This document shows, piece by piece, positions 30,002 to 63,356 of a DNA stretch of 64,000 bases. Each line of letters starts with the position of its first letter. The stretch's first letter is position 1. The position numbers were made by a program, and so were the translations under genes. Source of the DNA: Candidatus Daviesbacteria bacterium (GTDB taxonomy: Bacteria; Patescibacteriota; Microgenomatia; Daviesbacterales; UBA10151); the NCBI GenBank assembly GCA_016195715.1, contig JACPZA010000026.1, positions 20,222 through 84,221 of the forward strand, in the 5' to 3' direction. The notes under the pieces are model-generated. The model did no database searches. It had not been told where the DNA came from and saw only the letters and a list, made by a program, of their open reading frames with translations.

Positions 30002-30004
30002 TAA

Positions 30005-31384
<1,380 letters not shown>

Positions 31385-31679: not shown

Positions 31680-31699
31680 TCATTTCTATTTTGTTGAAA

Positions 31700-31850: not shown

Positions 31851-31853
31851 TAA

Positions 31854-34800: not shown

Positions 34801-37800
34801 GGCAATCAAGTGCAGAGACCTCTTATGGATTATATGTTGATGCCCAATCAGGTTCTGGCACAGCTAATTATGCAGCTATCTTTGCTGGAGGGAATGTTGG
34901 GATAGGTACTACAGCACCTGGTGCCCAGTTAGATATCTTAGCTGCTGCTTCAACTAAAGGCATAAGAGCCCAGAGTAGTGCTGCTTCTGCTAGTTCTGGA
35001 AATGGAGCTGCTGCTCAGAATATTTTAGATGTTTTGGGAGCAACTGGCCAGGAAACAACTGGGACAACAGGTCAAACAGCTGGGGCTGGTGGATCAATCT
35101 TCCTAACTGGAGGACTAGGAGGACAAGCTTCTGGAGCATCAGGATCAAATACTGGAGGACTAGGAGGACAAGTAAGTATAGATGGTGGAGCTGGAGGAGC
35201 TGCTACTAGTGGCACAAGTGGAGCTGGAGGAGGTGTAACAATTGGTGGTGGTAATTCTGATAGTAGTGGTGGGGCTGGAGGAGCTATTAGCATTTCTGGA
35301 GGTTTAGGGCATGGAGCTCAAAATGGTGGGGGTGTTAATATTGTCTCAGGGGATGCCAATGACACAGGTAATGGAGGGTCAATTACTATTACTTCTGGTC
35401 TTGGTGGAGGAACTTCTGGGAATTCTGGCACACTAACTTTAGATACAGGGACTGTTACCTCTGGGACTGTTGGGTCAGTGGTTATTAATACTGGGGGGGT
35501 TCAAGCAGCAGCTTTTAACTCCTCTCAGAACTTAACTTTAAATGGCACAACTATCACAGCCTCTTCCTTAACTACATTAACCACTTCTTCCTCCTTAGCT
35601 TTAAATGGAGCTTCAACTATTACTACCAACCAAGCTTCTTTAACCTTATTTAATGCTACTGCTACTACAGTTAGTGCCTTTGGTGCTGCTACTACTTTAT
35701 CTATGGCTACCTCAAATACAGCTAGTACACTTAATTTAGTGACTGGGACTGGTGGTAATACTATTAATATAGGTTCTGGAACCATTGCTACAGGCAATAC
35801 CCAAACTATTCACTTAGGAGATGCTGCTACAGGTACTGGAAAAGATGTTATCACTATTGGTAATACAAATGGAGCTTCCTCTCTAGCTTTAAATGCAGGT
35901 TCTGGGGGAATAACCCTAACTAATGCTACCACCACTGCTACTACCTTTGCCTCTACTACTACTAATGCTGATAAAATTGCTATTGCTCCCTCAACTGGTG
36001 GGTCAAATTCCTTTACTGCTACTATCTCTTCAGCAGATTTAACAGTAGGAAATCAAACTTTTAACTTCCCAGATCTAGCAGCTGCTACCTCTGCTACTAT
36101 CTGTGTCTCTGGTCAAACCTGTGCATCCTCTGGAACTTTGGGTTATTGGTCTAGGTCTGGTACTACTCTGTCTCCTGCTACAGCAAATGATATAGTTTCC
36201 ATTGCTAACACCACAACCTCAGGAGCAGATTTAGCAGTAACTAACACTGGAATATACACAGGTACTGGACTTGTTAATATCACAGCTAACTCTGCAACAA
36301 CTGGTGATATACTGGCACTCTCTGCTACTGCTTTAACTTCTGGTTCTGAATTGGTTATTACAGGTCCATCTGGTGGGACTGCTGGGGTCACAGATGCTGC
36401 TATTAAACTAACCTCAGATGTTGGTAATATTGGAACATCTAATGGGCTAATATCATCTGCTGCTACTATTGATTCCACTGCAGCTTCTGCTAATGGGATT
36501 AATTTATATTTAACAACCACTAACTCTAATGGGACTAATGCTAACACAGCTTATGGGATATATAACAGCCTGTCTGATGCTATAGCTTTAGGTAATACTA
36601 ATTATGGAATATATAACAATTTATCCAATACTGGGGTAACTTCTTCTAATAAAACAATCTATGGAAATTACTCAACAGTAGCCAATACAGGAGCTACGGG
36701 CGGAACACAAACTACTTATGGTGGTTATTTCTTATCAGATGGAGATAAAGGAGGAACCTCAACAGTTTACGGAGTATACGCACGAGCTGGTAAATATAAT
36801 GGCGCAGGTGGAGGAGATAATAACTATGGAGGCTATTTTGAAGGTTATAATGACTCTGGTACTGGAACTAGTTTATATGGTACATATTCATATGGTCTTG
36901 TTGGTTCAGGTAATGTTCCGAATATATATGGAGCTTATAATTTTGGCAGTTTTGTAGGTTCGGGTGGTAGTGGATCCTCCATGTATGGTGCTTATAATAA
37001 GACTACAAATGATTCAGCTAATTCATTTGGCACAGCATATGGCTCATACAACACCGTAACTGATGGTGGAGCATCAAATATTACAACTGCTTATGCCTCA
37101 TATAACTTAATTGATAATCAAGTTAGTAGTACATACACTACTGCTTACGGCAGTTATATCGGTGTAACATCTAGTGGCACTATTACTACTGGTTATGGAT
37201 TGTATATTAATACAATAGCAGGTTCGACCAATTATGGCCTTTATCAGGCTAGTTCTACTAATAACAATTATTTTGCAGGTAATGTTGGGATTGGAACTGA
37301 CACTACTCCAACTGAAGGGACTTTAACTTTAGCTAGCACTTCTAATACGGTACCAGTGGTTTCTTTAACCAACAACACTGTCACCACATTGGGTGCTGGT
37401 GTTAATACTACTGGTGTATTAGATCTACAATCTACTACTCTAACAACTGGGAACTTTTTGAATATAGAGACAAATGCTTTAACTACTGGTAAAACTGTTA
37501 ATACTACCTCTACTTCTAATGCCTATACTTCAGGTAATTTACTTTATACTGACTTAACTCAATCAGCTGCTACAGGCACTTCTGTCTCTGGCAATATTGG
37601 TTCTATTAGCTTTAATCCAACCTATTCTACTGCTATCACCACTCCTGCTATCTCAGGTAATGTCTTAAATATTGCTAGATCTTCTACTACCAATTCCAGT
37701 TTTGCTTCCACTTTAACAGTTTCTGGAGCAGTTGCTTCAATCTCTGATACCTCTACCCAAACTACTGGCACTTTAACCAATACAGCTAATGTTCTAGCTT

Positions 37801-40800
37801 TAACCCAAAACTACTCCTCTGCTACTGGTAATGTCTTAAGCATTGCTGATTCTGCTACTCATGCTAGTGGAGGTAGTTCTTTGCTTGTTACTGCTAATGC
37901 TTTAACTACAGGTACTGGGGTATCTATTACTTCATCTTCCCTAACCTCTGGTAAGTTAGTCAGTATAACTCCTACCTTTGCTGGATCAGCTGTCACAGGG
38001 TATGGATTATACAATGCTGGAACTGATTCTACAGCTAATGCTAATATAGATTATGGTTATTATGGATCTTTAGCTCTAACAGGTAATGCTGGGAAAACTG
38101 GTTATGGAATCTATTCTACTATTACTAATACCTCAACTACTGCTGCCACTCAATATGCTGGATACTTTAATCTCTCTAATACAGGAGTAGTCACAGCTAC
38201 AGGTGATAATAACTATGGAATATATTCCAGTGCTACCAGAACTGGTTCTACTACAGCAGGGACTACTAATACCTATGGAGGTTACTTTACTACTACTGCA
38301 GATGCTGGTGGAGCATCTACTACTAATGCTTATGGTATCTATGCTACAGCTACTGGTGGGGATAATAATTATGCTGGATATTTTGATGTTGCTAATACTG
38401 GACAGGTATATATAAACTCCACTCTGTCTGGTGGAGCCAGGTCTGTTCCCCAGATGACTATCACTCAAGCCAACGCAGGTAATAGTTCTTCTTCTAATCT
38501 ATTAGAGCTAATTAATTTAGATCAAGATACTGCTCCTGCTCCTTTAGATATAGACAATAGAGCAACATTGCCAACATTTATTAATTTACATAGTAATGCA
38601 GCAGTAGCACTGAGTGGTAGTAGTGCAACCGGCATTAATGTAGATTTAAAAAGTAATTATAGTATAAGCAACGCTACAACTGGCGTTGTGGCATATCAAG
38701 GCACATTACCAAGCAATACTAGTACTTGTTCTGGGTGTACTTTTACTTACCAAGGATTGGAGGTTAGCCAAACTACTCTCTCTCAATCAACTAACGCCTC
38801 AACTCATAACTCTAATTTAGTAGATCTAACCTTACCTAATATTACTCAAACTACAGGTACTATTACTGCTAATGGAGTGCTGGCTACAAATGGTACAATC
38901 ACCACTGCTGGAACTGAGAATTCATTTAAAGGAGTCTTGGGAACTATTACCACTGCTGGTACTCAAAATGGAGTAAATATTGATTTTTCAGGATCCACTA
39001 TAACCACAGCTGGAACTGTTAATGGAGTACTGCTTACCCCACCCACCACCACTTCAACTGGTGGAACTTATAATGGGATAAATATTGGTAATATAACCAC
39101 TTCTAATGGAACAGATACTGCTATTAGTATTGGAACCGGTTGGGATACAGGAATATTAGGAGCAGGTGCACTAACTATTAAGTCAACCTCAGGTGACTTA
39201 GGATTATCAACTGTTACTTCTGGTAATATTACCCTAGCTCCTGCTTCAACAGGTTCTGTTCAGTTAACCTCTGGGGTAACAACTGGAACCACTACATCAT
39301 CAGCTCTTTCCATAGTAGCTAACTCTTTAAGTTCAGGTACTGGTTTCAATATCTCATCTTCTGCTAACAGCCTTACTGGCTCATTAACTAATATTTCTTC
39401 AACTGGTACAACCGCTGGAATCAATGCCAACTCTGCTGGTGGTTCTACTGGAACAGCTCAAGCTATTAGTGTTAGCAATCTAGCTGCTGATGCCAGTAAC
39501 TTCTCTGCTGCTACCTCTATTACTTTTACCAACGTTTCATCTAATACCACTGGTACCAGTGCTGTTAGTGGTTATACCATCATAGGAACCATTAATGCCA
39601 CAGGCGCAAGTGGAGCAAAGACCGCATCAGGAACTTCTGTTGTAGCCCCAACCCTTACTGGTTGTGGATCTGGGACTTCAACCTGTACCTGGAATGGTGT
39701 TGGTTCAAGCTTAACAAATTTGGGAGGAGGCTTTGGTGGATTTACTGAAAATGCCTTTAATGTCAACTCAGCTACTGCTACTTCAGGAACTATTCGAGGT
39801 ATTAATCTTGTTGGCATAGGCTCACCAGGTGCTGGTACTGAAATTGCAATTAACGCTAGTGCTGGCTGGGATACTATTTTAAATGTTGCTGGTGCCTTTA
39901 CCCAAGCTGCCTCTAGTACTGACACTGGAGTCAGCCTGGATTTTTCTAGCATGACTGCTGCTGTGGGTAGTGCTACCAACTTAACTGGAACTACTTTCTT
40001 AACTCCAGCTATCACTGAAACTGGTAACTTTGCTCATACCTATCTTGGCTATGATATTCCAACTACTGGAAATATTATCAATCAAGGAACTTCTACTTTT
40101 GCTTTTACAGGATATGATTTATCGGGTTCTGGAACTGTGACTCAAAACACCGCAGCTGGAACCATTAATTGGCGAGGGGTAAATATTAATCTCCCCGCTA
40201 TTACTCAAACAACAGGAACCATCACAGCGGATGGAGTTAGAGTGTTAATACCAGCTACAGGTTCTATAACTACAGGTGGTACGATGAATGGTATAAATGT
40301 GGTTGCCCCAACCACAAATTCAAATGCTGCTGGAACCCTAAATGGAGTTAATATTGCCAACTTAACTGTAGGAACTGGTGGAACTGGTAATAATGCTTTA
40401 ACTATTGGCTCTGGTTGGGGTAAACAGATTAATGGAAATCAGTTTAGTGTTGATGGCTCTGGAATTTTAACACTAGATTTAGCAACCACTAGCTCAAATG
40501 GAGTTTGTCACACCAACTCAGGAACTGGCACAGCTGAGGTCTTGCTTGATTGTACTGGTACTATTACAGACTATGCTGAGGTTTATGCTACAACTGGCAA
40601 CAGTGAGCCTGGAGATATACTAGCAACCACTGATCAGCCTCTAGTTTTAGACAAATCTAACTCTTCTTACCAACAAAATATAATTGGGGCAATCTCTACT
40701 AATCCAAATGATCCAATTGGACAAACTTTTGCTACTAACCAAAACCCACAACCTATTGGCCTGTCTGGACGTATTCCTATTAAAGTCAGTTTAGAAAATG

Positions 40801-42032
40801 GTCCAATTAAAAAAGGCGATTTATTAACAACCTCTTCAACTTTGGGAGTTGCTATGAAAGCTACTCATGCAGGGATGGTTATAGGCACAGCTTTGGAAGA
40901 TTTTGATGGATCAGTAAAAGTCTCAGCAGATACTCTATCCCAAGAAAATCACAGATTAACAGATCATCCAGATTACCCTGTTTATCACTCTGATCCTGCA
41001 AAATGGCCAGAGGGAGTTGGAAAAATCTCAGTTTTAGCAAGAGTTAGCTTTGCAGATCCAGCAAACTTACTGGCTAGTTTAGCTATCAGTTCAGATGGAA
41101 CTTTAATTACTCATGATTTAACTGTTGATAAAATTACTATAAATTCTAAGCTAGAATTAAATGGTACTTTAGTGGTTAACGGCACAAATGTTGATCCTCA
41201 AGCTTTAATAACTGCTGGAAATTTAGCATCTTCGGTAGATGATTTAAACTCTACCATTGCTACCCAATCTGGTCAGTTAGCAAACTTAAGTTCACAAGTT
41301 GCAGGAGTTGCCACTCAATCTGCAAATCTAGCTCAAAATTTAGCTTCAGAGTCAGCCTCACTTGCTAATTTAAACTCTCAAGTCTCTCAAGTATCCAGTT
41401 CATCTGCGTCTTTAACAACTCAAGTTGCATCAAATTCTGCTCAAATTGCCGCAGTTCAATCAGATTTAGATTTGATTAAATTAAAACTTAACTCAACAGA
41501 CTCTTCTAGCTCTGGTCAGCTAATTAGCTTAAATGTCCAAGAAGCAACAGTCTCTGGGATATTTAGATCACTTGGAGATACCTTCCTAGCTAAAACCAAT
41601 GTAGCTGGGGATATCACCCAAGATGGCACACTGTCAATTGAAGGTGGCAAATCAATTAACGCTTTGCCAACGCTATATTTCCAAAACTCATTAATAGCCG
41701 AAACTGTTGATTTCTTTAATGGTTTAATTACTTTTGATAAAACTGGTAAAGTCACTTTGCAAAAACTAGTCATCCCAGATACCAAATTAGCGACCCTTAA
41801 CTCTGATCCAACTATTGGTTCTGGAAAGATTATTTCTGGACAAACTTCAGTTATCATTAATAATAATCAGGTTAGTTCAACTGCTAAAATCTTTGTCACA
41901 GCCAGAAGTAAGATTGGTTCCCAAGCTTTGGTAGTTGAGTCAGTTAACCCAGGGAATAGCTTTATTGTTAGCTTAGATCATGCACTAGGAAATGATTTAA
42001 TCTTTGATTGGTGGATTGTTGAGACTAAGTAA
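31854..42032 (+). CDS. Giant (3392 aa) membrane protein: cytoplasmic N-terminal MerR-type HTH, single TM, very large Thr/Gly/Ser-rich repetitive extracellular region, coiled coil, conserved C-terminal domain
   Basis: HTH IKIGEASKLLGVHIDTLRRWEAKGKIKSIRTPGRTRLY; TM ISEVLFACLILLSLSSYFVL (aa ~118-140); long internal repeats; Gly-rich block; periodic Y-G repeats; heptad-like repeats near 41200-41500; C-terminus paralogous to the 57477 ORF. Confidence 0.8.
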   Translation: MNTTLPNNTSKKFIKIGEASKLLGVHIDTLRRWEAKGKIKSIRTPGRTRLYSFDQIKQVNQESLAETNPLTLNTEQLLDRAESQPEVTKDYDREIPADLDKSNQLDQISQNISNNSIKPTLISEVLFACLILLSLSSYFVLKEVNGQRSLILGLKQTQEKIANLIFPSHSSSPISKDAGLIGLNPNLVASKNDLNKGAVLAASASANFLELNSDSVINGSLAVSSDATFSGKITAPNVIYGLTPGSNITITQGQNPTISVSSIVSSLQGSTGAISLVAGTDISISGLTISNSSTLSSTRGRGGCDSCIKDSDVDNGLTISSSGSVDAGALTGTIASGRISGSYTGITGVGTIATGVWNGTVIGPTFGGTGLTSFTTGDTLYASATNTLSKLGIGTSGQVLTVSSGIPAWTTIGASSCPTCVLTNPSSSQTITNASSTGFTITQASTAGSADIFDVTNNAGTTKYLQIDSSGNASFAGTVTSSSTLTASNGLTQTTGALTLTATSGTLTLSGLSASSISFGSNNVTFTSGNFNTTSTGINSTAVGATTASTGAFTTLSATPGSDTTGLTVTGTNVTSANLVLLSAKNTSGNILAISYPSAATLATSGTFNALDFDIRTNVTATNANISGVTVKLPSVTVSSASTKNILGWNSNNTTQTLTTSNASAVGSYIGYYASNPAIVGTSGSASSYGFNALTGTITTTGTQAGFFADLTSSTVTTAGTVYGLLVNPPTTTSAGGTYYGASIGNITTSNGTDTAISIGTGWDADLAFVSTAPKITIGNTGTLSFTDGTNTLCSIADAGTTGNLTCSGNITGASTGTVGYWSRSGTTLSPATSGDAVTTSGNISTSGSGTITSASTLTASNGLTLTTGALSLTATSGSIALTGFGTTSITSTTTTGNINTLADSSFAVAAAATGNLVNLTFTNGSTSTSGTATTTGLNIAATNNAAGASGTHETYGIRLQNIAGTAGAGTQNNYGVRIGNYGQSSAETSYGLYVDAQSGSGTANYAAIFAGGNVGIGTTAPGAQLDILAAASTKGIRAQSSAASASSGNGAAAQNILDVLGATGQETTGTTGQTAGAGGSIFLTGGLGGQASGASGSNTGGLGGQVSIDGGAGGAATSGTSGAGGGVTIGGGNSDSSGGAGGAISISGGLGHGAQNGGGVNIVSGDANDTGNGGSITITSGLGGGTSGNSGTLTLDTGTVTSGTVGSVVINTGGVQAAAFNSSQNLTLNGTTITASSLTTLTTSSSLALNGASTITTNQASLTLFNATATTVSAFGAATTLSMATSNTASTLNLVTGTGGNTINIGSGTIATGNTQTIHLGDAATGTGKDVITIGNTNGASSLALNAGSGGITLTNATTTATTFASTTTNADKIAIAPSTGGSNSFTATISSADLTVGNQTFNFPDLAAATSATICVSGQTCASSGTLGYWSRSGTTLSPATANDIVSIANTTTSGADLAVTNTGIYTGTGLVNITANSATTGDILALSATALTSGSELVITGPSGGTAGVTDAAIKLTSDVGNIGTSNGLISSAATIDSTAASANGINLYLTTTNSNGTNANTAYGIYNSLSDAIALGNTNYGIYNNLSNTGVTSSNKTIYGNYSTVANTGATGGTQTTYGGYFLSDGDKGGTSTVYGVYARAGKYNGAGGGDNNYGGYFEGYNDSGTGTSLYGTYSYGLVGSGNVPNIYGAYNFGSFVGSGGSGSSMYGAYNKTTNDSANSFGTAYGSYNTVTDGGASNITTAYASYNLIDNQVSSTYTTAYGSYIGVTSSGTITTGYGLYINTIAGSTNYGLYQASSTNNNYFAGNVGIGTDTTPTEGTLTLASTSNTVPVVSLTNNTVTTLGAGVNTTGVLDLQSTTLTTGNFLNIETNALTTGKTVNTTSTSNAYTSGNLLYTDLTQSAATGTSVSGNIGSISFNPTYSTAITTPAISGNVLNIARSSTTNSSFASTLTVSGAVASISDTSTQTTGTLTNTANVLALTQNYSSATGNVLSIADSATHASGGSSLLVTANALTTGTGVSITSSSLTSGKLVSITPTFAGSAVTGYGLYNAGTDSTANANIDYGYYGSLALTGNAGKTGYGIYSTITNTSTTAATQYAGYFNLSNTGVVTATGDNNYGIYSSATRTGSTTAGTTNTYGGYFTTTADAGGASTTNAYGIYATATGGDNNYAGYFDVANTGQVYINSTLSGGARSVPQMTITQANAGNSSSSNLLELINLDQDTAPAPLDIDNRATLPTFINLHSNAAVALSGSSATGINVDLKSNYSISNATTGVVAYQGTLPSNTSTCSGCTFTYQGLEVSQTTLSQSTNASTHNSNLVDLTLPNITQTTGTITANGVLATNGTITTAGTENSFKGVLGTITTAGTQNGVNIDFSGSTITTAGTVNGVLLTPPTTTSTGGTYNGINIGNITTSNGTDTAISIGTGWDTGILGAGALTIKSTSGDLGLSTVTSGNITLAPASTGSVQLTSGVTTGTTTSSALSIVANSLSSGTGFNISSSANSLTGSLTNISSTGTTAGINANSAGGSTGTAQAISVSNLAADASNFSAATSITFTNVSSNTTGTSAVSGYTIIGTINATGASGAKTASGTSVVAPTLTGCGSGTSTCTWNGVGSSLTNLGGGFGGFTENAFNVNSATATSGTIRGINLVGIGSPGAGTEIAINASAGWDTILNVAGAFTQAASSTDTGVSLDFSSMTAAVGSATNLTGTTFLTPAITETGNFAHTYLGYDIPTTGNIINQGTSTFAFTGYDLSGSGTVTQNTAAGTINWRGVNINLPAITQTTGTITADGVRVLIPATGSITTGGTMNGINVVAPTTNSNAAGTLNGVNIANLTVGTGGTGNNALTIGSGWGKQINGNQFSVDGSGILTLDLATTSSNGVCHTNSGTGTAEVLLDCTGTITDYAEVYATTGNSEPGDILATTDQPLVLDKSNSSYQQNIIGAISTNPNDPIGQTFATNQNPQPIGLSGRIPIKVSLENGPIKKGDLLTTSSTLGVAMKATHAGMVIGTALEDFDGSVKVSADTLSQENHRLTDHPDYPVYHSDPAKWPEGVGKISVLARVSFADPANLLASLAISSDGTLITHDLTVDKITINSKLELNGTLVVNGTNVDPQALITAGNLASSVDDLNSTIATQSGQLANLSSQVAGVATQSANLAQNLASESASLANLNSQVSQVSSSSASLTTQVASNSAQIAAVQSDLDLIKLKLNSTDSSSSGQLISLNVQEATVSGIFRSLGDTFLAKTNVAGDITQDGTLSIEGGKSINALPTLYFQNSLIAETVDFFNGLITFDKTGKVTLQKLVIPDTKLATLNSDPTIGSGKIISGQTSVIINNNQVSSTAKIFVTARSKIGSQALVVESVNPGNSFIVSLDHALGNDLIFDWWIVETK
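34085..34148 (+). repeat. ~64-bp near-identical intragenic repeat, copy 1 (copy 2 at 39087-39150); part of a ~75-aa protein-level repeat (...NITTSNGTDTAISIGTGWD...)
   Basis: aatataaccacttctaatggaacagatac[a/t]gctattagtattggaac[a/c]ggttgggat seen at both sites. Confidence 0.75.
34311..34351 (+). repeat. 41-bp exact direct repeat, copy 1 (copy 2 at 36141-36181), inside the giant gene; encodes GYWSRSGTTLSPAT
   Basis: ggttattggtctaggtctggtactactctgtctcctgctac is identical at both positions. Confidence 0.85.
36141..36181 (+). repeat. 41-bp exact direct repeat, copy 2 (copy 1 at 34311-34351)
   Basis: Identical to 34311-34351. Confidence 0.85.
39087..39150 (+). repeat. ~64-bp near-identical intragenic repeat, copy 2
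   Basis: See copy 1 at 34085-34148. Confidence 0.75.
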
Positions 42033-51936: not shown

Positions 51937-51964
51937 ATTATATCACAAGCAATTTTTTTGTCAA
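51937..51964 (-). promoter_or_regulatory. Consensus sigma70 promoter (TTGACA-16-TATAAT) driving the T-box leader
   Basis: Minus strand reads gcttatagTTGACAaaaaaattgcttgtgaTATAATcatt; the -35 overlaps the comEC stop codon. Confidence 0.6.
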
Positions 51965-52974
51965 CTATAAGCTTTTTTACTTTCTTGTTTCAAAGCTAAA
52001 AATAAAGCTAAAACAATTAAATAATAACCTATCCAAACTAGGATTGAGGTTTTTGGAAAATAGATGTTGGCAAAACTTAAACTGCCAAAAAAGTTCACTA
52101 TATAAATAAAATAAGTTAGTAGTACTCCAGAAAAAAGTCCAAATATTTTTCCCAAAGTTAAACTAATCAACCCAAAACTTAAAGCTACAATTCCTCCCAT
52201 CATGATAAATGACACAGTCCATAAAACTAAAACATTAACTAACAATCCAATTAAGCTAAATTGATGAAAATTGGCAGCAATAATTGGCCAAGTTAAAGCT
52301 TGAGCACAAAATGAGACAATAAGATCCTGTTTTATAATGTCTGGCAAGAAATTTATTCTATTTTCCAGTTCTGGAGCCACTATTACTACTCCCACAGTTG
52401 CCAAAATTGAGAGCTGAAAGGAGATGGAAAGTAACCAATTTGGGTTATAAATAAGCATTAAAAGTCCAGTTAGAATTAAGATCCATGGACTTTCTTTTTC
52501 TCTACCAAAAAATTGAGCGATCGATGAAAAACCAACCATTAGAGCTGCTCTAATAACTGGAACTTGCAACCCAGTCAGTACTGCATAAAACAAACTAGCT
52601 AGCAAAGATAAAGCTAAAGTTTTTCTTCTGCCTAAAATTGAAGCTAAGCTCATGATAAACCCAGAAACTAAAGTTAAATTCTGACCAGAAACCACCACAA
52701 TATGAATGGTTGAAGTTTTTCTTAAATTATTATTAAAATAGCCCGGTAAGTCGCTTTTTTCTCCAAGCAAAATTCCAGAAAGTAGTGGCGCTTGAGGCTG
52801 GGGCAAAATTTCTGAGATGGTATTTGCTAGTTTGAGCCTAAAAGGCAATAGATATTTGGCAATACTTTCAGTTTCTGGATCTTGATATTTTTTGTCCAAC
52901 CCACCAATTTGAGTAACTCTAAAGATAAAAATTAAAGTAAATAAAATCAAAACCAAGCCAAAAGTCTTTCTCAA
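51961..52974 (-). CDS. comEC: ComEC/Rec2-like DNA internalisation channel, membrane competence domain only (no C-terminal metallo-beta-lactamase domain)
   Basis: Multi-TM; TSTIHIVVVSGQNLTLVSGF matches the ComEC signature (SHLLAISGLHV-like). Confidence 0.6.
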   Translation of the reverse strand: MRKTFGLVLILFTLIFIFRVTQIGGLDKKYQDPETESIAKYLLPFRLKLANTISEILPQPQAPLLSGILLGEKSDLPGYFNNNLRKTSTIHIVVVSGQNLTLVSGFIMSLASILGRRKTLALSLLASLFYAVLTGLQVPVIRAALMVGFSSIAQFFGREKESPWILILTGLLMLIYNPNWLLSISFQLSILATVGVVIVAPELENRINFLPDIIKQDLIVSFCAQALTWPIIAANFHQFSLIGLLVNVLVLWTVSFIMMGGIVALSFGLISLTLGKIFGLFSGVLLTYFIYIVNFFGSLSFANIYFPKTSILVWIGYYLIVLALFLALKQESKKAYS

Positions 52975-52975
52975 T

Positions 52976-53569
52976 TTATCTTAGATCAATTAAATTTTTG
53001 ATTTTTTCAAAAATGCCTTTGGAAACAGCTTTTTTAGCCACCAAATCATTTAAATCAGAATAAGGACGACTACTGATAATTTTTGAAGCTGTAGCAGGCC
53101 CTATCCCTGGTAAATTCTCTAAATCATTTTCACTGCCAGAATTTATCCCAACTAATTGTCCAGAAACTCCAGCTACGCTAGTTATTGTTTGTCCAGAAAA
53201 AGCGGTTTGATCGGATTTATTTGGGATATAAATTTTTTGGCCATCAACTAACTTTTGAGATAAATTTAGACTTTTTTCAACATAATCTTGATTTACATCT
53301 AAACTCAACCCCCCAGCTTTGGAAATAGCATCTTCAATTCTAGAATTTGAAGCTAAACTGACTACTCCCGGATTATTCACGGCTCCAGAAATATCTACTT
53401 TTATTTCACTACTCCCTGAGGTATTAGCTATAGTAGTTTTTGAATATTTAACAGCTTTTGCAGAAAGTAAATTTGAACTAAAAATCCCACCAACTATTAA
53501 AACTACCCCAACTAAACTTAAAATAATTGGTAATTTATACTGGCTAAAGAGCGAATTAAATTTTTCCAC
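52976..53569 (-). CDS. comEA: Competence protein ComEA (SLBB + helix-hairpin-helix DNA-binding)
   Basis: N-terminal TM; C-terminal HhH DLENLPGIGPATASKIISSRPYSDLNDL. Confidence 0.8.
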   Translation of the reverse strand: MEKFNSLFSQYKLPIILSLVGVVLIVGGIFSSNLLSAKAVKYSKTTIANTSGSSEIKVDISGAVNNPGVVSLASNSRIEDAISKAGGLSLDVNQDYVEKSLNLSQKLVDGQKIYIPNKSDQTAFSGQTITSVAGVSGQLVGINSGSENDLENLPGIGPATASKIISSRPYSDLNDLVAKKAVSKGIFEKIKNLIDLR

Positions 53570-53598
53570 TGCTCTTTAAATTTAGTAAGAATTTAAAT

Positions 53599-54084
53599 TT
53601 AATGCAAGCTTTTGCGATATTCTTTAAGCCAAACCTGATAAGCTTTATTTAAATGTCCTAAGCCTCTGGCACTTAACTCTTTTTTTATCACTCCACCATG
53701 ATGCGGATATTTGTGCAATCTAGGCTTGGGAGAGGAAAATCCGTGTGTATAATGACAAAGCTCATGAGCTATGGTGTGATCTACAACCTGGATTGGAATT
53801 AAAGGATCTTTAAACATTCCAGTAATAGTAATATATGAGTGTTTTGCCAATTTATCAAACCTAATTGAACCTAAACGATACCGAGAAAACCTTCCAAACT
53901 TAATAAAAACTGGGTTAACTTGCCTAACATTATTAAAATAATTGCTCCACAGATAGTCTAGGCGTGCTAATAACCAATTATCACCACGCAAAGATTTAGA
54001 GATTCGAACGCTGGTTAGAGAAAAGTAAGGTTTGAGTTGGGGCATCGTTAGAATATAGTAAGACGCTTTAGCAAAATATGTCAA
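53599..54084 (-). CDS. SprT-like / DUF45-like zinc metallopeptidase-fold protein
   Basis: HTIAHELCHYTHG (HExxH-containing) near the C-terminal third. Confidence 0.4.
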   Translation of the reverse strand: MTYFAKASYYILTMPQLKPYFSLTSVRISKSLRGDNWLLARLDYLWSNYFNNVRQVNPVFIKFGRFSRYRLGSIRFDKLAKHSYITITGMFKDPLIPIQVVDHTIAHELCHYTHGFSSPKPRLHKYPHHGGVIKKELSARGLGHLNKAYQVWLKEYRKSLH

Positions 54085-54095
54085 GCAAGCTAAAA

Positions 54096-56507
54096 TTAAA
54101 CTACCAGGCTTAAAACTTTACCTTTAGCATAAATAGTCTTTTTAATCTCTTTACCTTGCAAAAACTTTTGGACTTTAGTACTTTCTAAAGCTTTTTTTAA
54201 TATATCAGACTGATTATTTAATATATCAATAGATAAATTAATAGTATCCCTAACTTTACCATTAACTTGAATCACAATACTTACCTGCTCTGTTTGCAAA
54301 TACTTTTCATCAACTTTTGGCCAAGATTGTAAATGAATTGACTCCTTTTCCCCAAGCCTCTGCCATAACTCCTCAGTAATATGAGGAGCAAATGGAGCCA
54401 GTACCAAAATTAAATTCTTATATTCATTTTTACTGACTTTATCTTTTCTGCTTAGATGATTTAGCCAACTCATAATTGCAGCAACAGCTGTATTAAATTT
54501 AACCTCATTTATTTCTTGAGTGACTTTTTTTATTGTTTGGTTCATAACAGTTAGATCTTCCTTTGAAAGTTCTACTTTTGTCATTTTGTCATATAACTGC
54601 CAGATTCTAGTTAAAAATCTATAAATTCCAGATATTGCACCTGGTGACCAAGGAGCTGTCGCATCATAAGGCATCATAAAACTTAAATATAGCCTCACTG
54701 TATCTGTTCCATATTCTTTAACTACATCATCTGGGTTAATAACATTTCCTCTGGATTTGCTCATCCTATTTCCATCTGGGCCGAGTACTACTCCATGCTG
54801 AACTCTGACTTTGGCAAACTCATCGTACTCAACCATTTTTAAGTCTTTAAAAAATTTAGTAAAAAATCTAGCATATAAAGTGTGTCCTAGGGTATGTTCT
54901 GATCCTCCAAAATAGATATCTAGCGGCATTAATATTTTGGCTAATTCAGGATCAAAAGGACCATTATCAAAGTGGGGATCTAAATATCTTAGAAAATACC
55001 AAGATGAATCAAAAAATGTATCCAAAGTTTCTGCATCTCTTTTAGCTTCTCCTTGGCATTTAGGGCATTTAACTTTTAACCACTCTTTATTACTAGCTAA
55101 AGGGGGTTCTCCAGTAGGAGTAAAATCCACTTCATATGGCAGTTCAACTGGTAGATCTTTGTCTGGGACAGGAATCATGCCACAATTTGGACAATGAATA
55201 ATAGGCACAGGTGTTCCCCAATATCTCTGCCTCGAAATTGACCAATCATGGATATGATATTCAACTTCTCTTTTTCCATAGCCTTTTTCTTCCATATAAT
55301 CCATGATTTTTTTAGTAGCAGGGTGAATATCTAAACCATTTAAGAAATCAGAATTAACTATCTTTCCCTCTTGTTCTTGTACTTGTTTGATATCCTTTAT
55401 TTCACCTTCATCACCATCTTTTCCAACCACAACTCTTTTTATCTCTAAGCCAAATTTTTGAGCAAACTCAAAGTCTGTCTTATCATGACCAGGCACCCCT
55501 ACTAATGCACCAGTTCCAAAATTAATTAGTACAAAATCAGCTATCCAAATTGGCATCTTAAAATTAGTTAAGGGATTAATTGCATAAGATCCTGTAAAGA
55601 TGCCTGTTTTTTCTTTGTTTTCTTTTCTTTCTAGCTCGGTTTTTTTCTTGCTTTTTTCTAGATAAGCCTTTACAGAAGCTTTGTTATCTTTAGTTGTAAT
55701 AGCTAAGGCTTTGGGATGCTCTGGTGCTAGAGCGATAAAAGTGGCTCCAAAATTAGTGTCTGGACGTGTGGTAAATACTTCAACAGTCTCATCAGAACCT
55801 TCTATGTTATAAGTAATATTAATTCCTGTCTTTTTTCCAATCCAATTATTTTGACCATCCCTGACTGAGGCTGGCCAGTCAGCTTGAGGTGGTTCTTTCC
55901 AAATTAATTGATCAGCGTAAGCTGTTATTTTTAAAAACCACTGCTCTACTTCTTTTTGAATGACTTCTGTTCCACACCTCCAGCACTTTCCACTCTCAAC
56001 ATGCTCATTGGCTAATACAGTTTTATCTTTAGGGCACCAATTTGATAGTGTTTTACCTCTATAAGCAATTCCTTTTTCAAACATTCTATTAAAGATCCAT
56101 TGATTCCACTTGTAATATTCAGGCAAACAAGTTATAGCTTGGTGATCCCAATCTATCATCGTGCCCATAGTTTGGAATTGTTTAGTCATAGTCTCTATAT
56201 TGGACATTGTCCAATCTTTTGGGTGGATCCCTCTTTTGATGGCCGCGTTCTCTGCAGGCAAGCCAAAAGCATCAAATCCATTAGGGAAAAAGACATTTAG
56301 TCCTTGCATTCTTTTAAACCTAGCCATGACATCTGGCGGGACAAAGGCAAACCAGTGTCCAATATGTAAATCTCCTGATGGGTAAGGAAGCTCAACTAAA
56401 TTGTAAAATTTCTCCTTAGATGAATCTAAGCTAAATTTATTAACTCCTTGTTCTCTCCAAGTCCTCTGCCACTTATTTTCAACCTCTACTGGTAAATACT
56501 TTTTCAT
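54096..56507 (-). CDS. leuS: Leucine--tRNA ligase
   Basis: PYPSGDLHIGHWFAF (HIGH), KMSKSRGN (KMSKS), CP1 editing domain; 803 aa. Confidence 0.95.
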   Translation of the reverse strand: MKKYLPVEVENKWQRTWREQGVNKFSLDSSKEKFYNLVELPYPSGDLHIGHWFAFVPPDVMARFKRMQGLNVFFPNGFDAFGLPAENAAIKRGIHPKDWTMSNIETMTKQFQTMGTMIDWDHQAITCLPEYYKWNQWIFNRMFEKGIAYRGKTLSNWCPKDKTVLANEHVESGKCWRCGTEVIQKEVEQWFLKITAYADQLIWKEPPQADWPASVRDGQNNWIGKKTGINITYNIEGSDETVEVFTTRPDTNFGATFIALAPEHPKALAITTKDNKASVKAYLEKSKKKTELERKENKEKTGIFTGSYAINPLTNFKMPIWIADFVLINFGTGALVGVPGHDKTDFEFAQKFGLEIKRVVVGKDGDEGEIKDIKQVQEQEGKIVNSDFLNGLDIHPATKKIMDYMEEKGYGKREVEYHIHDWSISRQRYWGTPVPIIHCPNCGMIPVPDKDLPVELPYEVDFTPTGEPPLASNKEWLKVKCPKCQGEAKRDAETLDTFFDSSWYFLRYLDPHFDNGPFDPELAKILMPLDIYFGGSEHTLGHTLYARFFTKFFKDLKMVEYDEFAKVRVQHGVVLGPDGNRMSKSRGNVINPDDVVKEYGTDTVRLYLSFMMPYDATAPWSPGAISGIYRFLTRIWQLYDKMTKVELSKEDLTVMNQTIKKVTQEINEVKFNTAVAAIMSWLNHLSRKDKVSKNEYKNLILVLAPFAPHITEELWQRLGEKESIHLQSWPKVDEKYLQTEQVSIVIQVNGKVRDTINLSIDILNNQSDILKKALESTKVQKFLQGKEIKKTIYAKGKVLSLVV

Positions 56508-57476
56508 AAGTTTTTGAAGCTAAACTTCATCTAATTCTATTCTAGCACTTTCAAGTTCAATTTCAAATATAACTTATAACATTTTTTTATTTCATAATTA
56601 TAAAACCCTATAATTTAATAGATATTAGTAAATTTTTCTACTTATTCACTTTTCCACAATACCTATCCAAATAGATCAATAAGTACTTATTTAATTACCG
56701 CATGAATCTATTACTTTTTCTCTTTTTATTCAAGTTCTTAATAAATTAATACTAAATATATTTATCTATATCAAATAATATTATATTTTGTTTCACAGCT
56801 TATATGAAAATATTTGTGAAAAACATAATCCTATAAAACATTTAGCGTTGTTTTTAAACTTACAAGCATAGCTATAAATCTTATAATATATTTATTTGAG
56901 ATATTTCTTATTTATTATAGTATTTTTAAACTTTTTTATTTTTTTTAAAAATTATCCTAAATATTTTCAAATAAAATACTAGTTAGGTTACTCTTTTTTG
57001 ATTATTTTGGAGCATTTTTGGGGACATTTGACTATTTTTTGACCATTTTCAGGCTTTTTTCCTATAGTTTACTAAAATTAGCGATGAATTAGTTTAAATG
57101 CTAAGTGATTTTTTTAACAATTTAGCCTTTTATAACAATCTATTCTTAGATTAATTTATTGAATTTTTTAGTGTTTTTATAAGGACAATCTAGATTTATA
57201 AATAAAGTTATTTAACTTAAGTTATTTAATCAATTAATAGCCATATTTTAATAAAAATAAACTAAATCAAGATCTATCTAAATTAGCTTTTGCTTTAAAA
57301 AATTGAAGCTAAATTCTTGTGATTGGAGAAGATTAATTAAACCTGCTTTATGGTAATGTCTATTAAAAATTTTCCTAAGATTCGGTATTTAAAACTTTAA
57401 GTTGATCTATTGACAAGCTGTTCAATTTTTGCAACATTAGATATACTAATTATTTCCTAACTTTTTCCTAATTTTT
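56508..57476. other. ~970-bp extremely AT-rich ORF-free intergenic region between divergent leuS and the second giant HTH gene
   Basis: No ORF in any frame; long A/T runs; near-DnaA-box-like TTTTCCACA and TATCCAAAT around 56650-56670, neither a strong match. Confidence 0.5.
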
Positions 57477-60176
57477 ATGGCTAATTCTGAAAATATAATA
57501 AATCCAAAATCTAGATCCTTACTTTCAATTTCAAAGGCAGCTAAAATCTTATCTCTTTCACCAGATACTCTAAGGAACTGGGAGAAAGAAGGCAAACTAA
57601 TCCCTCTTAGAACTAAAGGTAAAGCTCGAAGATATAGCTTGTTTGAGCTCAAGCAACTGAAAAAAGATCTAAACTTAAAAGCGAAGCCCAAAAAGGGACT
57701 TATTTCTATTTCCAAAGCAGCAAGAGTACTAAACATATCTAGTGACACTTTAAGAAACTGGGATGAACAAGGTTTAATTACTATTCAAAGAAGCAAAGGT
57801 GGTGCTCGTAGATTTACCAAAGCAGAGATAAATAGAATCAAGAGTGAGTTTGATTTTGGTTTGAAAAAGCGAACCCCACCAAACCTTATTCCAGAACAAA
57901 AGCAAGTTATCTTAACTCCAGTTAACCCATATTTAAAAATCCTAAGATTTACCCCAGTTTTTATATTACTAATTTTTTCGTTATTAATTTATTCATTAAC
58001 TTTATCTTCAATAAACAACATTATTCCTACATCCCCTCAACCCTCAACTAATAAAACCACCAATCAAAAAATTAATACTCAACCATTGGATGAAATTAAA
58101 AAACAACTATTTAACTTTACTTCATCTTTAGAGGGTTTACAAAAAAATGTCTATGATCTTCAAGCTAGCTCACCAACTAACCCTGCTAATAATTCTCAAA
58201 TTTATTCATCCCGTTTAAATTCTAAAGATAGTTTTATTGGCCAAACTATTATTGATTCAAATGGAGTTGTTTATCCCAGCGCCAGAACTACTGATAATCA
58301 TCAGGTAACTATCCCTTCACTTGGAACTTGGGATCACCGATTTGCCGGAGTTTATTTGAATAGATTCGATGTTACATCCGGAGGTGATTTAACTGTTCAT
58401 GGCAAATCCAATCTTGGAGAGACCTCTTTTGATACAGTTAATATTATAGGCAATTTGGGAACAGATATTATCCCAGCTTCAAAAAGCCAGCTCTCTTTAG
58501 GAAGTGGCAGCTACTTTTTTAAACAAGCTTTTATCTCAACAATTAATGGTGGGGTATTTAATGCTACGAACCTTAATTCGACTAGTTTAACTTTAGGAAC
58601 TTCTGATTTAGGATCATCTTCTGGGCCAGTAATTGCTCTAGCCAACCTAACTACTACTCCAAATGCTATATCAAACCAGGGCTTTTTATATCTATCTGCT
58701 GGTGCTTTAAAATATCAAGGATCTTCAACTTTAACTACTATCGCTGCTGCAGATTATTCAGAAGATATGCCCTATTTGGGTAATTTGGAAGCTGGGGACA
58801 TAGTTAGTATCTCTTCTACTCCAAATTATACCTCAACCAATGAATATGATAAGTTTTATGTTGAAAAATCTCCTAAAAGTTACGATCCAAAAATTTTAGG
58901 CATAGTTTCATCGTTTTATGATCCTAAAACTCAAAACCAGCAAACATTACCTATCGCTCTAGTGGGTAGAGTGCCAGTAAAAGTTAGTAATGAGAATGGA
59001 TCGATACAACAAGGCGATCTATTAACTTCTTCTTCTATCCCCGGAGTAGCAATGAAAGCTAAGAGTCCTGGACAAGTCCTTGGAAAAGCTTTGGAAAGCT
59101 TTAGCGGTGAATCTGGTAAAATTTTAGTTTTTGTAAATGTGGGTTTTGGTGATCCAGAAAATTTATTATCAAACTTAAGCTTAACCCCAGATGGTTCCCT
59201 ACTTATTCCTAAGATTACCTCAACTCAAATTCAAATCTCACCTCAAATTCAATTTGCTAATCAATTAGAAAACTCTGACTCAACTTTGGACAGCTCAAAT
59301 CTAGTAGCTGCAGGTAGTTTAGCAACTAATTCAGAAAATACTCAAACTAATTATATTGAGGTTGCATCTAAATTAGAGCAGATTGATAACTCATTGAATA
59401 GTTATTCTCAAAGCTTAACAACTATTAATAATAAGTTAGCAGATCAATCTAATCAAATATCTCAAAATAATGAAAAAATTAACTTAATAGATCAAAATGT
59501 AGCGTCAAATTCTGCTCAGTTAGATTTACAGAATGACTTAATTTCTTCAAATTCTAGCCAAATTGCCCAAATCAACCAAGATGTATCCAACTTAAAGCTT
59601 ACTCCCCCAGAAATATTGCTGGCAACAAGCTCTGCTAATTTAGCTGAATTGTCAGTTGGAAACACAACATCAACCCTTAACTTAAGTGCATCAGATGCTA
59701 CAATTGCTGCTAATTTACATTCATTAGGAAATACATTTTTAGCTAAAACTAACTTGGCTGGAGACTTAACTCAAGATGGAACTCTATCTTTAACTGATGG
59801 AAAATCGATAAATGGCTTACCTACATTATATATACAAAACTCAAGTTTAGCTGAAAGTTTAGATCTGTTTAACGGCGCTGTTATTGTTGATAAATCAGGC
59901 CAAATTAAAGCTCAAACTATTTTAGTAGCTGAGTATAAAGTTATTGCTAATAGAACTAGTGGACAAGGAACTCTTGCTGCTAATAAAAAATCAGTTGATA
60001 TTGAAAATAAATTAGTTAATAAAACCTCTCGCATTCTAATTACCCCAACGACTCAGACAAATAAAGTTCTAGCTGTGACTGATAAAGTTGAGGGAGAAAA
60101 ATTTACAGTTTCCGCCTCCTCTACTAGTGATTCAGATATTAACTTTGATTGGTGGTTTGTCAATGAAATACCTTAA
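57477..60176 (+). CDS. Paralog of the giant protein (899 aa): two tandem MerR-type HTH domains, single TM, extracellular region with shared ~70-aa module, coiled coil and conserved C-terminal domain
   Basis: HTH1 LSISKAAKILSLSPDTLRNWEKEGKLIPLRTKGKARRY; HTH2 ISISKAARVLNISSDTLRNWDEQGLITIQRSKGGARRF; TM FTPVFILLIFSLLIYSL; C-terminal GNTFLAKTNLAGDLTQDGTLSLTDGKSINGLPTLY ... FDWWFV aligns with the C-terminus of 31854. Confidence 0.75.
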   Translation: MANSENIINPKSRSLLSISKAAKILSLSPDTLRNWEKEGKLIPLRTKGKARRYSLFELKQLKKDLNLKAKPKKGLISISKAARVLNISSDTLRNWDEQGLITIQRSKGGARRFTKAEINRIKSEFDFGLKKRTPPNLIPEQKQVILTPVNPYLKILRFTPVFILLIFSLLIYSLTLSSINNIIPTSPQPSTNKTTNQKINTQPLDEIKKQLFNFTSSLEGLQKNVYDLQASSPTNPANNSQIYSSRLNSKDSFIGQTIIDSNGVVYPSARTTDNHQVTIPSLGTWDHRFAGVYLNRFDVTSGGDLTVHGKSNLGETSFDTVNIIGNLGTDIIPASKSQLSLGSGSYFFKQAFISTINGGVFNATNLNSTSLTLGTSDLGSSSGPVIALANLTTTPNAISNQGFLYLSAGALKYQGSSTLTTIAAADYSEDMPYLGNLEAGDIVSISSTPNYTSTNEYDKFYVEKSPKSYDPKILGIVSSFYDPKTQNQQTLPIALVGRVPVKVSNENGSIQQGDLLTSSSIPGVAMKAKSPGQVLGKALESFSGESGKILVFVNVGFGDPENLLSNLSLTPDGSLLIPKITSTQIQISPQIQFANQLENSDSTLDSSNLVAAGSLATNSENTQTNYIEVASKLEQIDNSLNSYSQSLTTINNKLADQSNQISQNNEKINLIDQNVASNSAQLDLQNDLISSNSSQIAQINQDVSNLKLTPPEILLATSSANLAELSVGNTTSTLNLSASDATIAANLHSLGNTFLAKTNLAGDLTQDGTLSLTDGKSINGLPTLYIQNSSLAESLDLFNGAVIVDKSGQIKAQTILVAEYKVIANRTSGQGTLAANKKSVDIENKLVNKTSRILITPTTQTNKVLAVTDKVEGEKFTVSASSTSDSDINFDWWFVNEIP

Positions 60177-63352: not shown

Positions 63353-63356
63353 AGGG

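Follow-up and report, generated by a model that had tools for sequence, protein, structure and literature searches.

A Daviesbacteria protein predicted to join a tandem BldC-like helix-turn-helix pair to a phage-fibre-like ectodomain, and conserved direct repeats upstream of its gene

The regulators ToxR, CadC and TcpP have a winged helix-turn-helix (HTH) of the OmpR/PhoB type and small sensor domains in the periplasm, and they depend on dimerisation or on partners. RacA sites are dispersed near the origin and the protein is tethered through a partner protein. In MYRF a processing domain of phage tail-fibre origin lies between the DNA-binding domain and the transmembrane (TM) helix and its cleavage frees the factor. 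BldC, a MerR-like protein without a dimerisation coiled coil, forms head-to-tail multimers on direct repeats one helical turn apart, and its residues T27, W31, G44 and R47/R48 provide the phosphate/backbone, kink and wing contacts to DNA (PMC5859096). Both membrane-tethered transcription factors and BldC-type binding to direct repeats are already known. Here we describe a gene in a 64,000-nucleotide stretch (the window) of contig JACPZA010000026.1 from a Candidatus Daviesbacteria bacterium of the candidate phyla radiation (CPR, or Patescibacteria), located at positions 57477..60176 of the forward strand, whose 899-aa product carries two HTH units in tandem, one predicted TM helix and an ectodomain of about 720 aa. 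What is new is the combination of a covalent tandem pair with a phage-fibre-like ectodomain and conserved sites at the gene's own promoter; in full-text literature searches we found neither the architecture nor the matched repeats described. We propose a surface fibre that is tethered to the membrane and regulates itself, its tandem pair binding the direct repeats head-to-tail, a reading drawn from sequence comparison that we consider somewhat the more probable case.

The gene is one uninterrupted open reading frame (ORF) with an ATG start, and its product is 100% identical to a Candidatus Daviesbacteria NCBI entry labelled "MerR family regulator". The database label "MerR family transcriptional regulator" needs correction, as about 85% of the protein is predicted to be extracellular fibre. 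Pfam places MerR/MerR_1/HTH_17 stretches at aa 17-53 and 77-122, with a whole-protein E value of 8e-22 for PF00376, and the scores of 77.2 bits for PF00376 (two stretches, curated cut-off 28.2) and 65.6 for PF13411 (cut-off 21.6) assign the protein to the MerR superfamily of winged HTH proteins. An earlier note on this DNA, made from the letters alone, had described two consecutive HTH units, and both peptides quoted there are found in the translation; the profile search that it named as a possible refutation returned a MerR-superfamily winged HTH and not a non-DNA-binding fold. The four HTH copies that it counted in the window are likewise present, two in this gene and one each in a giant paralog and a small ORF at 23404-23637. 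Neither an effector domain nor an OmpR/PhoB-type winged HTH (Trans_reg_C) gave a Pfam match in the 899-aa protein, and the AlphaFold model, a monomer with a predicted TM-score (pTM) of 0.33 and 300 residues with a predicted local distance difference test score (pLDDT) below 50, has no long antiparallel coiled-coil dimerisation helix of the kind found in classical MerR activators.

Both HTHs are predicted with confidence (pLDDT ~80-93), each being followed only by an ~11-residue helix (55-65 and 115-125) and then by linker or TM helix. The closest solved sequences are those of BldC, 6AMA/6AMK (phmmer, E 9.3e-5 for 6AMA), and then GlnR, and in Foldseek the HTHs superpose on BldC with target TM-scores of 0.78-0.84 and a root-mean-square deviation of 1.2-1.5 Å; RacA also matches. 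Judged by sequence and model, the units are BldC-like minimal domains without the MerR dimerisation helix or effector domain. Eight database proteins (37-45% identity) share the tandem HTH, TM helix and ectodomain and can be aligned end to end, and in the resulting alignment of nine full-length proteins (A1) the invariant residues are A21, K23, L25, D30, T31, L32, R33, N34, W35, R45, T46, G48, R51 and R52 in HTH1 and S79, A81, A82, L85, D90, T91, R93, W95, R105, G108, R111 and R112 in HTH2. Invariant T31, W35, G48 and R51/R52 align with the DNA-contacting BldC residues T27, W31, G44 and R47/R48, and the position of the base-reading Arg30 of BldC is occupied by N34 in HTH1 and N94 in HTH2. Mean identity between proteins is 57% among first HTHs, 50% among second HTHs and 46% between the two; the copies group by position, which suggests that the duplication is old and that both copies have been maintained.

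The region upstream of the gene has the appearance described in the earlier note, an AT-rich stretch of ~970 bp free of ORFs; it measures 969 nt and has a G+C content of 20.5%. It holds no ORF longer than 28 aa, no tRNA and no Rfam match at the gathering score or at E<=1, and a k-mer comparison of ten orthologous spacers revealed nothing conserved besides the promoter and the repeats, for which reasons a non-coding RNA or small ORF in this gap was rejected. In the predicted extended -10 promoter a 17-nt spacer, which includes the TG extension, separates TTGACA from the -10 hexamer AACATT (Table 1), and a MerR-type activation spacer of 19-20 nt with a palindromic operator is absent. Downstream of the -10 lie two direct 11-nt repeats, TTCCTAACTTT and TTCCTAATTTT (unit consensus TTCCTAACTTT, TTCCTAA[C/G]TTT), the second of which ends 1 nt before the ATG. 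The earlier note had proposed TTGACA/TATACT as the promoter, with palindromes in its spacer. TATACT (57442-57447) lies 26 nt from TTGACA and is thus not a plausible -10, nor is it conserved in orthologs, and the conserved elements turned out to be direct repeats downstream of the -10. Its idea of a tandem MerR pseudo-dimer stands in part: a built-in dimer is reasonable, but a two-fold symmetric MerR pseudo-dimer is unlikely, and the pair is more likely arranged head-to-tail, like BldC protomers, because the conserved candidate sites are direct 11-nt repeats and not a palindrome. The position of the repeats within the transcript is, like the promoter itself, a prediction from the sequence.

The exact double repeat occurs once in the 64-kb window, and in 1.03 Mb of compared CPR loci it is found at tandem-HTH genes only, apart from two weak matches. 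Single half-sites are present in the window at chance frequency (11 against 7.8 expected) and were therefore rejected as extra operators. Of the 42 window ORFs with 150 aa or more, very few show a recognisable Shine-Dalgarno sequence no further than 20 nt from the start; initiation independent of this sequence seems to be widely used in this lineage. A role of the repeats as a substitute for it was rejected, since most window genes have neither a Shine-Dalgarno sequence nor the motif, which argues against a general translation signal. A composite element at 56498-56524, 'unit + TTGAAGCT' at the start codon of leuS, was also rejected; it is not conserved in loci L011, L012 and L189 and is explained by the N-terminal codons of leuS.

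In ten orthologous loci the spacers measure 440-1300 nt and cannot be aligned except for the promoter and two to three direct 11-nt units at or shortly before the ATG. TTGACA is invariant in nine aligned upstream regions, and in most orthologs it is followed 14 nt later by TG and then by one nucleotide and the hexamer. Six tandem-HTH genes were fetched after the hypothesis had been formed, four from Logan assemblies (L185-L188) and two encoding giants of 5310 aa (L191) and 3356 aa (L192), and all of them carry two to three direct units in the same place; such repeats precede 16/16 of the tandem-HTH genes of this subtype that were examined. A weight matrix trained on the direct repeats only was then used to scan ~1 Mb for inverted pairs. 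It found five, all just upstream of genes for a single HTH with the same recognition helix as the tandem genes (SPDTLRNWE), a TM helix and a giant ectodomain (for example AAAGTTAGGAAATTTCCTAACTTT in L014), and at lower stringency or different spacing an inverted pair is present in 8/8 of the SPDTLRNWE single-HTH genes. The IDTLRRWE subfamily, comprising the window giant, L189 and L190, has instead AATCTATG[C/T]AAATCTA (= TTGACAAATCTATG[C/T]AAATCTA) inside an 18-nt promoter spacer. In the upstream region of the window giant (31694-31853) the promoter reads TTGACA-AATCTATGCAAATCTAGA-TATGCT with the motif inside the 18-nt spacer, and two further copies lie at 31701-31709, earlier in the region, and, inverted, at 31840-31848, directly in front of the ATG. 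All three copies of ATCTATGCA in the window fall within 155 nt upstream of this ATG, and AATCTATGCAAATCTA is the candidate site for the giant's HTH. L193, a tandem gene of the RRW type, is preceded by direct ATCTACCCAAA repeats. The residue that differs between RNW and RRW helices (N or R before the Trp) aligns with the base-reading Arg30 of BldC, and the comparison argues that the motif and the fused HTH's recognition helix co-vary.

We also scanned metagenomes for the double repeat, which yielded at least 120 stretches, none with an HTH gene downstream among the matches listed; many of these read ATGAAAAAGTTAGGA on the opposite strand (MKKLG N-termini). Some 35 of the matches listed (L066, L077, L102, L124, L142, L178 and others) are arrays of 4-12 tandem 11-nt units of TTCCTAAGTTT, TTCGTAAGTTT or TTCATAAGTTT. 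The two array loci inspected, L142 and L178, have no long ORFs, and the arrays are therefore probably a eukaryotic repeat family; they apparently resemble the CPR half-site by coincidence, and the metagenome scan is uninformative for the CPR question.

The architecture extends well beyond the close orthologs. A profile-free exhaustive search of 1.84 billion cluster representatives gave 193 matches at E<=1e-30, and an HTH model run on 156 proteins identified 33 with two HTHs and a TM helix and 37 with one HTH and a TM helix, the latter mostly giants of 1.3-6.8 thousand residues. The family layout of one or two HTHs, TM helix and fibre is present in at least 70 cluster representatives of up to 6,844 aa, and it recurs in independent assemblies from NCBI, ENA and Logan. 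Together with the 16 close tandem-HTH genes, these representatives bear out the view of the earlier note that the HTH-TM-ectodomain architecture is real. Relatives with the same ends span 728-6844 aa, the S/T/N-rich spacer being the part that expands to thousands of residues, and the most conserved family columns are those of both HTHs and of the C-terminal domain. The window giant has 3392 aa, with one MerR HTH (aa 15-51), a TM helix at ~116-144, huge G/T/S-rich repeats and then the same C-terminal module, coiled coil and tip. At the cytoplasmic end the domains can be multiplied or exchanged: P0090 has eight MerR HTHs before the TM helix, as 4 x (A+B) pairs, P0108 and P0122 combine an excisionase-type HTH_17 domain and a coiled coil with the same ectodomain, and P0010 and P0128 carry two phage-integrase SAM-like domains in that position. 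In P0136 an unassigned N-terminal domain sits on the same kind of fibre. Taken together, the extra genes that agreed with prediction, the inverted class, the co-variation of the motif and the substitution of the cytoplasmic domain argue that the cytoplasmic domains bind DNA and that their target is their own promoter-leader.

The protein has only one hydrophobic segment that could span the membrane (aa ~152-180), and an HTH-in, fibre-out topology is predicted. The positive-inside bias supports this orientation, since Lys and Arg are more frequent before than after the TM helix in 44/68 family members and less frequent in 8/68, as does the mean net charge of +11.6 of the N-terminal part in the same 68 proteins. 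In the window protein the basic stretch that the earlier note saw before the TM helix is modest, with 5 K/R and 3 D/E in 30 aa. The note's one TM helix and ectodomain of ~730 aa, with a shared module, a coiled coil and a conserved C-terminal domain, agree with what we find, and these parts recur in the 3392-aa paralog.

The ectodomain is composed of folds that recall phage fibres. In Foldseek searches of the PDB the beta module matches the C-terminal autochaperone region of phi29 gp12 (3SUC, E 4e-4; 3GQH, E 2.8e-3) and also trimeric phage capsid decoration proteins (8HDT_G, 8PKH and 6QYY), and among predicted viral structures (BFVD) it matches a 'Preneck appendage protein' at E 2e-9; it is found in many giant proteins at up to 60% identity. 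The best BFVD matches of the ectodomain are to phage tail, pre-neck appendage and K1-lyase-C proteins, at E 2e-10 to 1e-5 and over up to ~400 columns. The 629-705 helix has weak matches of coiled-coil type to XhlA and EibD. For the tip domain, Pfam gives K1-lyase_C at aa 826-886 with an E value of 2.3e-4, below the curated cut-off, and Foldseek finds the receptor-binding domain of the Pam1 tailspike (7EEA), a Klebsiella phage depolymerase (9K4A) and the R2 pyocin fibre (6CT8/6CL6); residues S851, I853, L854, T856, P857, V864, A866, V867, F876, V878 and F890 are invariant in the tip region. Peptidase_S74, a tail-fibre chaperone domain, is present in the relatives P0009 and P0046. Phage homology at the level of sequence was rejected, as no PHROG or PDB sequence matched, and the relation holds at the level of fold only. 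On the strength of the models we read the ectodomain as a cellular surface fibre built from phage-fibre-like modules, probably trimeric and most likely serving as an adhesin or contact fibre of an episymbiotic CPR bacterium.

Combining these results, we suggest a type-II membrane protein with the fibre outside and two covalently linked BldC-like HTHs, contained in the first 125 residues, inside. The fibre would consist, in order, of a short stalk helix, the variable S/T/N-rich spacer, the phi29-gp12-like beta module, the long coiled coil and the beta-sandwich tip. The tandem pair would act as a covalent head-to-tail dimer on the two (or, in some orthologs, three) 11-bp repeats TTCCTAACTTT-TTCCTAATTTT, which lie between the gene's own extended -10 promoter and the start codon and would span about +9 to +30 of a transcript with a predicted start at about 57445. 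If it bound there while tethered to the membrane, synthesis of the fibre would act back on transcription of its gene. The most likely effect would be repression through a block to RNA polymerase, because the candidate operator is downstream of the -10, between promoter and ATG.

Several observations weigh against this model, the support for which is comparative throughout. Leu43 of BldC, a key residue of the head-to-tail interface, is replaced by Lys in both HTHs (K47 and K107), so the geometry between the domains may differ from that of BldC. The ectodomain is without a PHROG or PDB match at sequence level, and trimerisation is suggested solely by fold resemblance to trimeric phage proteins, the model itself being monomeric. 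Single-HTH genes of the RRW subfamily also show direct half-repeats, so a rule that a single HTH goes with a palindrome is not general. Moreover, the link between architecture and repeat arrangement is phylogenetically confounded: the tandem RNW genes and the single-HTH genes may each be one clade, in which case the link may reflect very few evolutionary events.

It could also be that the repeats are real cis elements but are read by a soluble small HTH paralog, another factor or RNA, the membrane HTH pair having a different role. Small stand-alone HTH ORFs do occur in the window (23404-23637) and in several other loci, and the one in L017 has the same motif upstream, so that such a protein could be the real binder; an RNA-level role may also be considered because the repeats would be transcribed, as part of the 5' leader, under the predicted promoter. 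However, one half-site is used in direct orientation in some genes and inverted in others, as would be expected of a DNA-binding protein but not of a common RNA structure. The motif differs where the fused HTH has a different recognition helix, it always accompanies a gene that itself encodes an HTH, and most window genes lack a Shine-Dalgarno sequence without carrying it. We therefore consider another reader of the repeats improbable. An unlikely competitor is a receptor resembling ToxR/CadC or RsgI/MYRF, in which the ectodomain senses host contact, force or the state of the envelope, and clustering or proteolytic release of the HTHs acts on the protein's own and other genes. The predicted topology (cytoplasmic winged HTH, one TM helix, external domain) is like that of ToxR-type one-component regulators, the beta module folds like the self-cleaving C-terminal domain of phi29 gp12, and the Peptidase_S74 domain of P0009 and P0046 is autoprocessing. 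Precedents are autoproteolytic ectodomains that feed intramembrane proteolysis (SEAL/RsgI, PMC10556640) and the membrane transcription factor MYRF (PMC8099431). Against a receptor, no other target sites were found in the +/-10 kb around the family genes or in the rest of the 64-kb window, a covalent tandem pair needs no signal-driven dimerisation to bind DNA, and cleavage of the phage-like module alone would not free the HTH, because the module is outside the membrane. The receptor reading is an extension of the autoregulation model, and by analogy the ectodomain could modulate the HTHs through ToxR-like sensing or RsgI-/MYRF-like processing.

A third possibility, to which we give little chance, is an architectural tether like RacA, where the HTH pair would anchor chromosomal or incoming DNA at the base of the fibre, maybe together with ComEA/ComEC uptake. 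RacA, a MerR-like winged HTH protein that fixes DNA at the cell pole, is among the best structural matches, the eight tandem HTH units of one relative suggest extended coating of DNA, and in most Daviesbacteria loci examined the gene lies beside or within leuS, a small HExxH ORF, comEA and comEC. This com linkage is limited to a single lineage and could reflect inherited synteny, neither the window giant nor single-HTH relatives lie near com genes, and the conserved sites are two or three units exactly at the gene's own promoter instead of dispersed anchoring sites. In addition, ComEC delivers single-stranded DNA, but winged HTH domains read duplex DNA. The com linkage could hint at a link to DNA uptake, and we give a role as DNA tether or in competence low weight. 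Finally, the resemblance of the ectodomain to phage tail proteins and the origin of the sequence in a metagenome-assembled genome (MAG) might raise the suspicion of a prophage tail-fibre gene or of a gene-calling or assembly artefact that fused a regulator to a surface-protein gene. Since the gene is one unbroken ORF, the architecture is shared by NCBI, ENA and Logan assemblies and by 70 or more cluster representatives, the gene is flanked by housekeeping genes in conserved order without phage genes, and no PHROG matched, we regard this explanation as already refuted, its probability being close to nil.

It is tempting to take self-regulation one step further and to speculate that such proteins are 'self-reporting' surface fibres throughout the CPR, adhesin and transcription factor in one polypeptide, which couple host contact or loss of the fibre to transcription; we give this idea a small chance. 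With the fibre intact, the tethered HTH pair would sit on its own leader and keep the gene off, and an HTH could act in cis, because it is the first part to be made and the nascent chain is then still attached to its gene. Once the fibre is engaged by a host cell, pulled, shed or self-cleaved at the phage-derived module, release or degradation of the cytoplasmic end would let the gene be expressed again. If true, this would be a bacterial mechanism resembling that of Notch or MYRF that works without a two-component system and suits organisms with very few regulators.

Table 1. Positions in the window of the tandem-HTH gene, its parts, its upstream elements and related features
Feature	Position	Strand	Basis or remark
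Tandem-HTH gene; single-TM protein with fibre-like ectodomain	57477..60176	+	ORF, 100% NCBI match, homolog alignment
HTH1, BldC-like MerR winged helix-turn-helix, predicted cytoplasmic, aa 15-65	57519..57671	+	Pfam, PDB sequence match, Foldseek, pLDDT 79-92
HTH2, second BldC-like winged HTH, aa 75-125	57699..57851	+	Pfam second stretch, pLDDT 80-93
Single transmembrane helix, aa ~152-180, predicted N-in/C-out	57930..58016	+	Hydropathy, AlphaFold helix 152-180
Juxtamembrane extracellular helix, aa 202-230, probable stalk/coiled coil	58080..58166	+	AlphaFold; L-Q..V..IQ pattern conserved (alignment A1)
S/T/N-rich variable spacer, aa ~231-424, poorly predicted	58167..58748	+	pLDDT mostly <50, length varies in alignment A1
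Conserved beta module, aa ~425-565, common to giant paralog	58749..59171	+	pLDDT 82-97, Foldseek, BFVD
Long alpha-helix, aa 629-705 (77 residues), probable fibre coiled coil	59361..59591	+	AlphaFold, pLDDT 81-87
C-terminal beta-sandwich 'tip' domain, aa ~825-899	59949..60173	+	pLDDT 94-98, weak Pfam, Foldseek
Predicted extended -10 promoter: TTGACA 57410-57415, 14 nt, TG 57430-57431, C, AACATT 57433-57438	57410..57438	+	Sequence and orthologs
Two direct 11-nt repeats, TTCCTAACTTT (57454-57464) and TTCCTAATTTT (57465-57475), candidate auto-operator	57454..57475	+	Ortholog comparison
Extra single half-site TTCCTAAGATT, ~30 nt upstream of -35	57372..57382	+	Weak alone
969-nt non-coding region between divergent leuS and tandem-HTH gene	56508..57476		20.5% G+C against ~33% in the window
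Giant paralog	31854..42032	+	Pfam, hydropathy, shared C-terminal parts
Stand-alone 77-aa HTH_17/Xis/BldC-like protein (MAEKISLEKLPDLLTVREVAEILRVSPLTIKRWGKRGKL...)	23404-23637	+	Fourth HTH copy; TTGACA at ~23366 before ORF
Block of comEC 51961-52974, comEA 52976-53569, 161-aa HExxH ORF 53599-54084 and leuS 54096-56507	51961..56507	-	Pfam

The tandem-HTH gene is syntenic with leuS, the HExxH ORF, comEA, comEC and argS in loci L001, L004, L006-L009, L011, L012 and L185, in three arrangements: it separates leuS from the block, stands between comEA and comEC, or is divergent from leuS, the arrangement seen in the window. In L004, where it stands between comEA and comEC, its ends overlap the neighbours, including the comEC start. 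The neighbours of the gene (leuS, comEA, comEC, argS and a Wzy_C/TPR protein) form no phage or prophage structural module, and their synteny is conserved across genomes. ATP synthase genes for the alpha, gamma and beta subunits (26549-31384) immediately precede the giant paralog, which is followed by an NAD-dependent epimerase gene and mreB (42082-44012). In other Daviesbacteria the ATP synthase operon adjoins leuS and the tandem-HTH gene, which suggests that the two paralogs occupy rearranged parts of one ancestral neighbourhood.

Some further observations concern the window and the compared loci. At 56990-57060, about 400 nt upstream of the gene, six consecutive units of ~10 nt end in T-tracts (GATTATTTTG GAGCATTTTT GGGGACATTT GACTATTTTT TGACCATTTT CAGGCTTTTT), and 56990-57019 and 57031-57060 form a 30-nt direct repeat of 77% identity; the phasing of the T-tracts suggests intrinsically bent DNA, and the element is not conserved in orthologs. 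The 77-aa HTH protein might, as a soluble protein, partner the membrane-bound HTHs or compete with them. Loci L022-L060, from many CPR lineages, encode type I restriction-modification HsdM methyltransferases of ~560-580 aa with an N-terminal MerR-type HTH and the same recognition helix, DTLRNW (e.g. L023, 9950-11692). The 5' end of their reading frame has, at or close to it, two direct 10-nt repeats, ACCTATGAAA-ACCTATGAAC (on the other strand TTCATAGGT), which looks like another fused HTH whose own gene carries a repeat. Several MAG records titled 'uncultured Gammaproteobacteria', 'Pseudomonadales' and 'Sulfurovum' carry loci of Daviesbacteria or CPR type (L007-L009, L012, L013, L016, L017 and others); leuS in these records is 57-63% identical to the window leuS, and the taxonomic labels look wrong. 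For an EamA-family ORF (62492-63391, reverse strand) the listed TTG start overlaps tRNA-Ala (63355-63427, reverse strand), and the true start is probably further downstream, e.g. at an internal Met before WFIYSLFF.

CPR bacteria make up a large share of bacterial diversity and live attached to hosts, but little is known of how attachment is sensed and controlled. The genomes have few classical regulators and many unexplained giant surface proteins. A sizeable family of these giants starts with one or two BldC-like domains on the predicted cytoplasmic side, and each subfamily has its own conserved promoter repeat. If the autoregulation model is true, it provides a defined protein-operator pair that can be tested directly, a natural covalent head-to-tail dimer of BldC type and a simple control mechanism for very costly surface proteins, as well as a route to asking whether the fibre itself signals host contact.

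Among described systems, BldC is closest in its DNA-binding unit. In both cases the unit consists of a winged HTH only, without coiled-coil dimerisation helix or effector domain, BldC being the best PDB match in sequence and fold; the residues equivalent to the BldC DNA contacts are invariant in the tandem-HTH family, and the direct repeats bound by BldC have a counterpart in the 11-nt direct repeats that we propose as sites. BldC, in contrast, is a free 68-residue monomer that oligomerises on DNA and regulates many genes, whereas here two units are fused at the N-terminus of a membrane protein, are followed by an ectodomain of 720 aa (up to >6000 aa in relatives), and have a candidate site seen at their own gene alone. 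The classical MerR activators MerR, CueR, SoxR and BmrR share an N-terminal winged HTH of the same superfamily, with Pfam MerR and MerR_1 above cut-offs in our protein, but the long antiparallel dimerisation helix and the effector-binding domain are missing here, the promoter spacer is 17 nt and not 19-20 nt, and direct repeats downstream of the -10 replace the palindrome in the spacer. RacA of Bacillus subtilis is a good fold match and likewise a minimal MerR-like winged HTH that attaches DNA to a membrane-associated site, although it has no TM helix or ectodomain.

On the outer side of the membrane the closest counterparts are the distal regions of phage tail fibres and tailspikes, which the module, coiled coil and tip match at the level of fold. 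Here, however, the gene is chromosomal and located among conserved housekeeping genes, its product is predicted to be anchored in the cell membrane, and the gp12-like module is internal and not C-terminal as in phi29 gp12. In MYRF and RsgI/SEAL a membrane anchor is joined to a cytoplasmic part that regulates genes and to a self-processing domain (PMC8099431, PMC10556640), and they offer a conceptual precedent for release triggered by contact or assembly; unlike in MYRF, the phage-like module of the Daviesbacteria protein would be on the far side of the membrane, and any processing of it is putative. In domain order, an N-terminal cytoplasmic winged HTH, a single TM helix and an extracytoplasmic C-terminal domain, the predicted topology is that of ToxR, CadC and TcpP, and as in these regulators DNA would be bound by a protein still anchored in the membrane. 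The Daviesbacteria protein differs from them in having a tandem winged HTH of MerR/BldC type on the predicted inside and a fibre of phage-tail-like modules outside.

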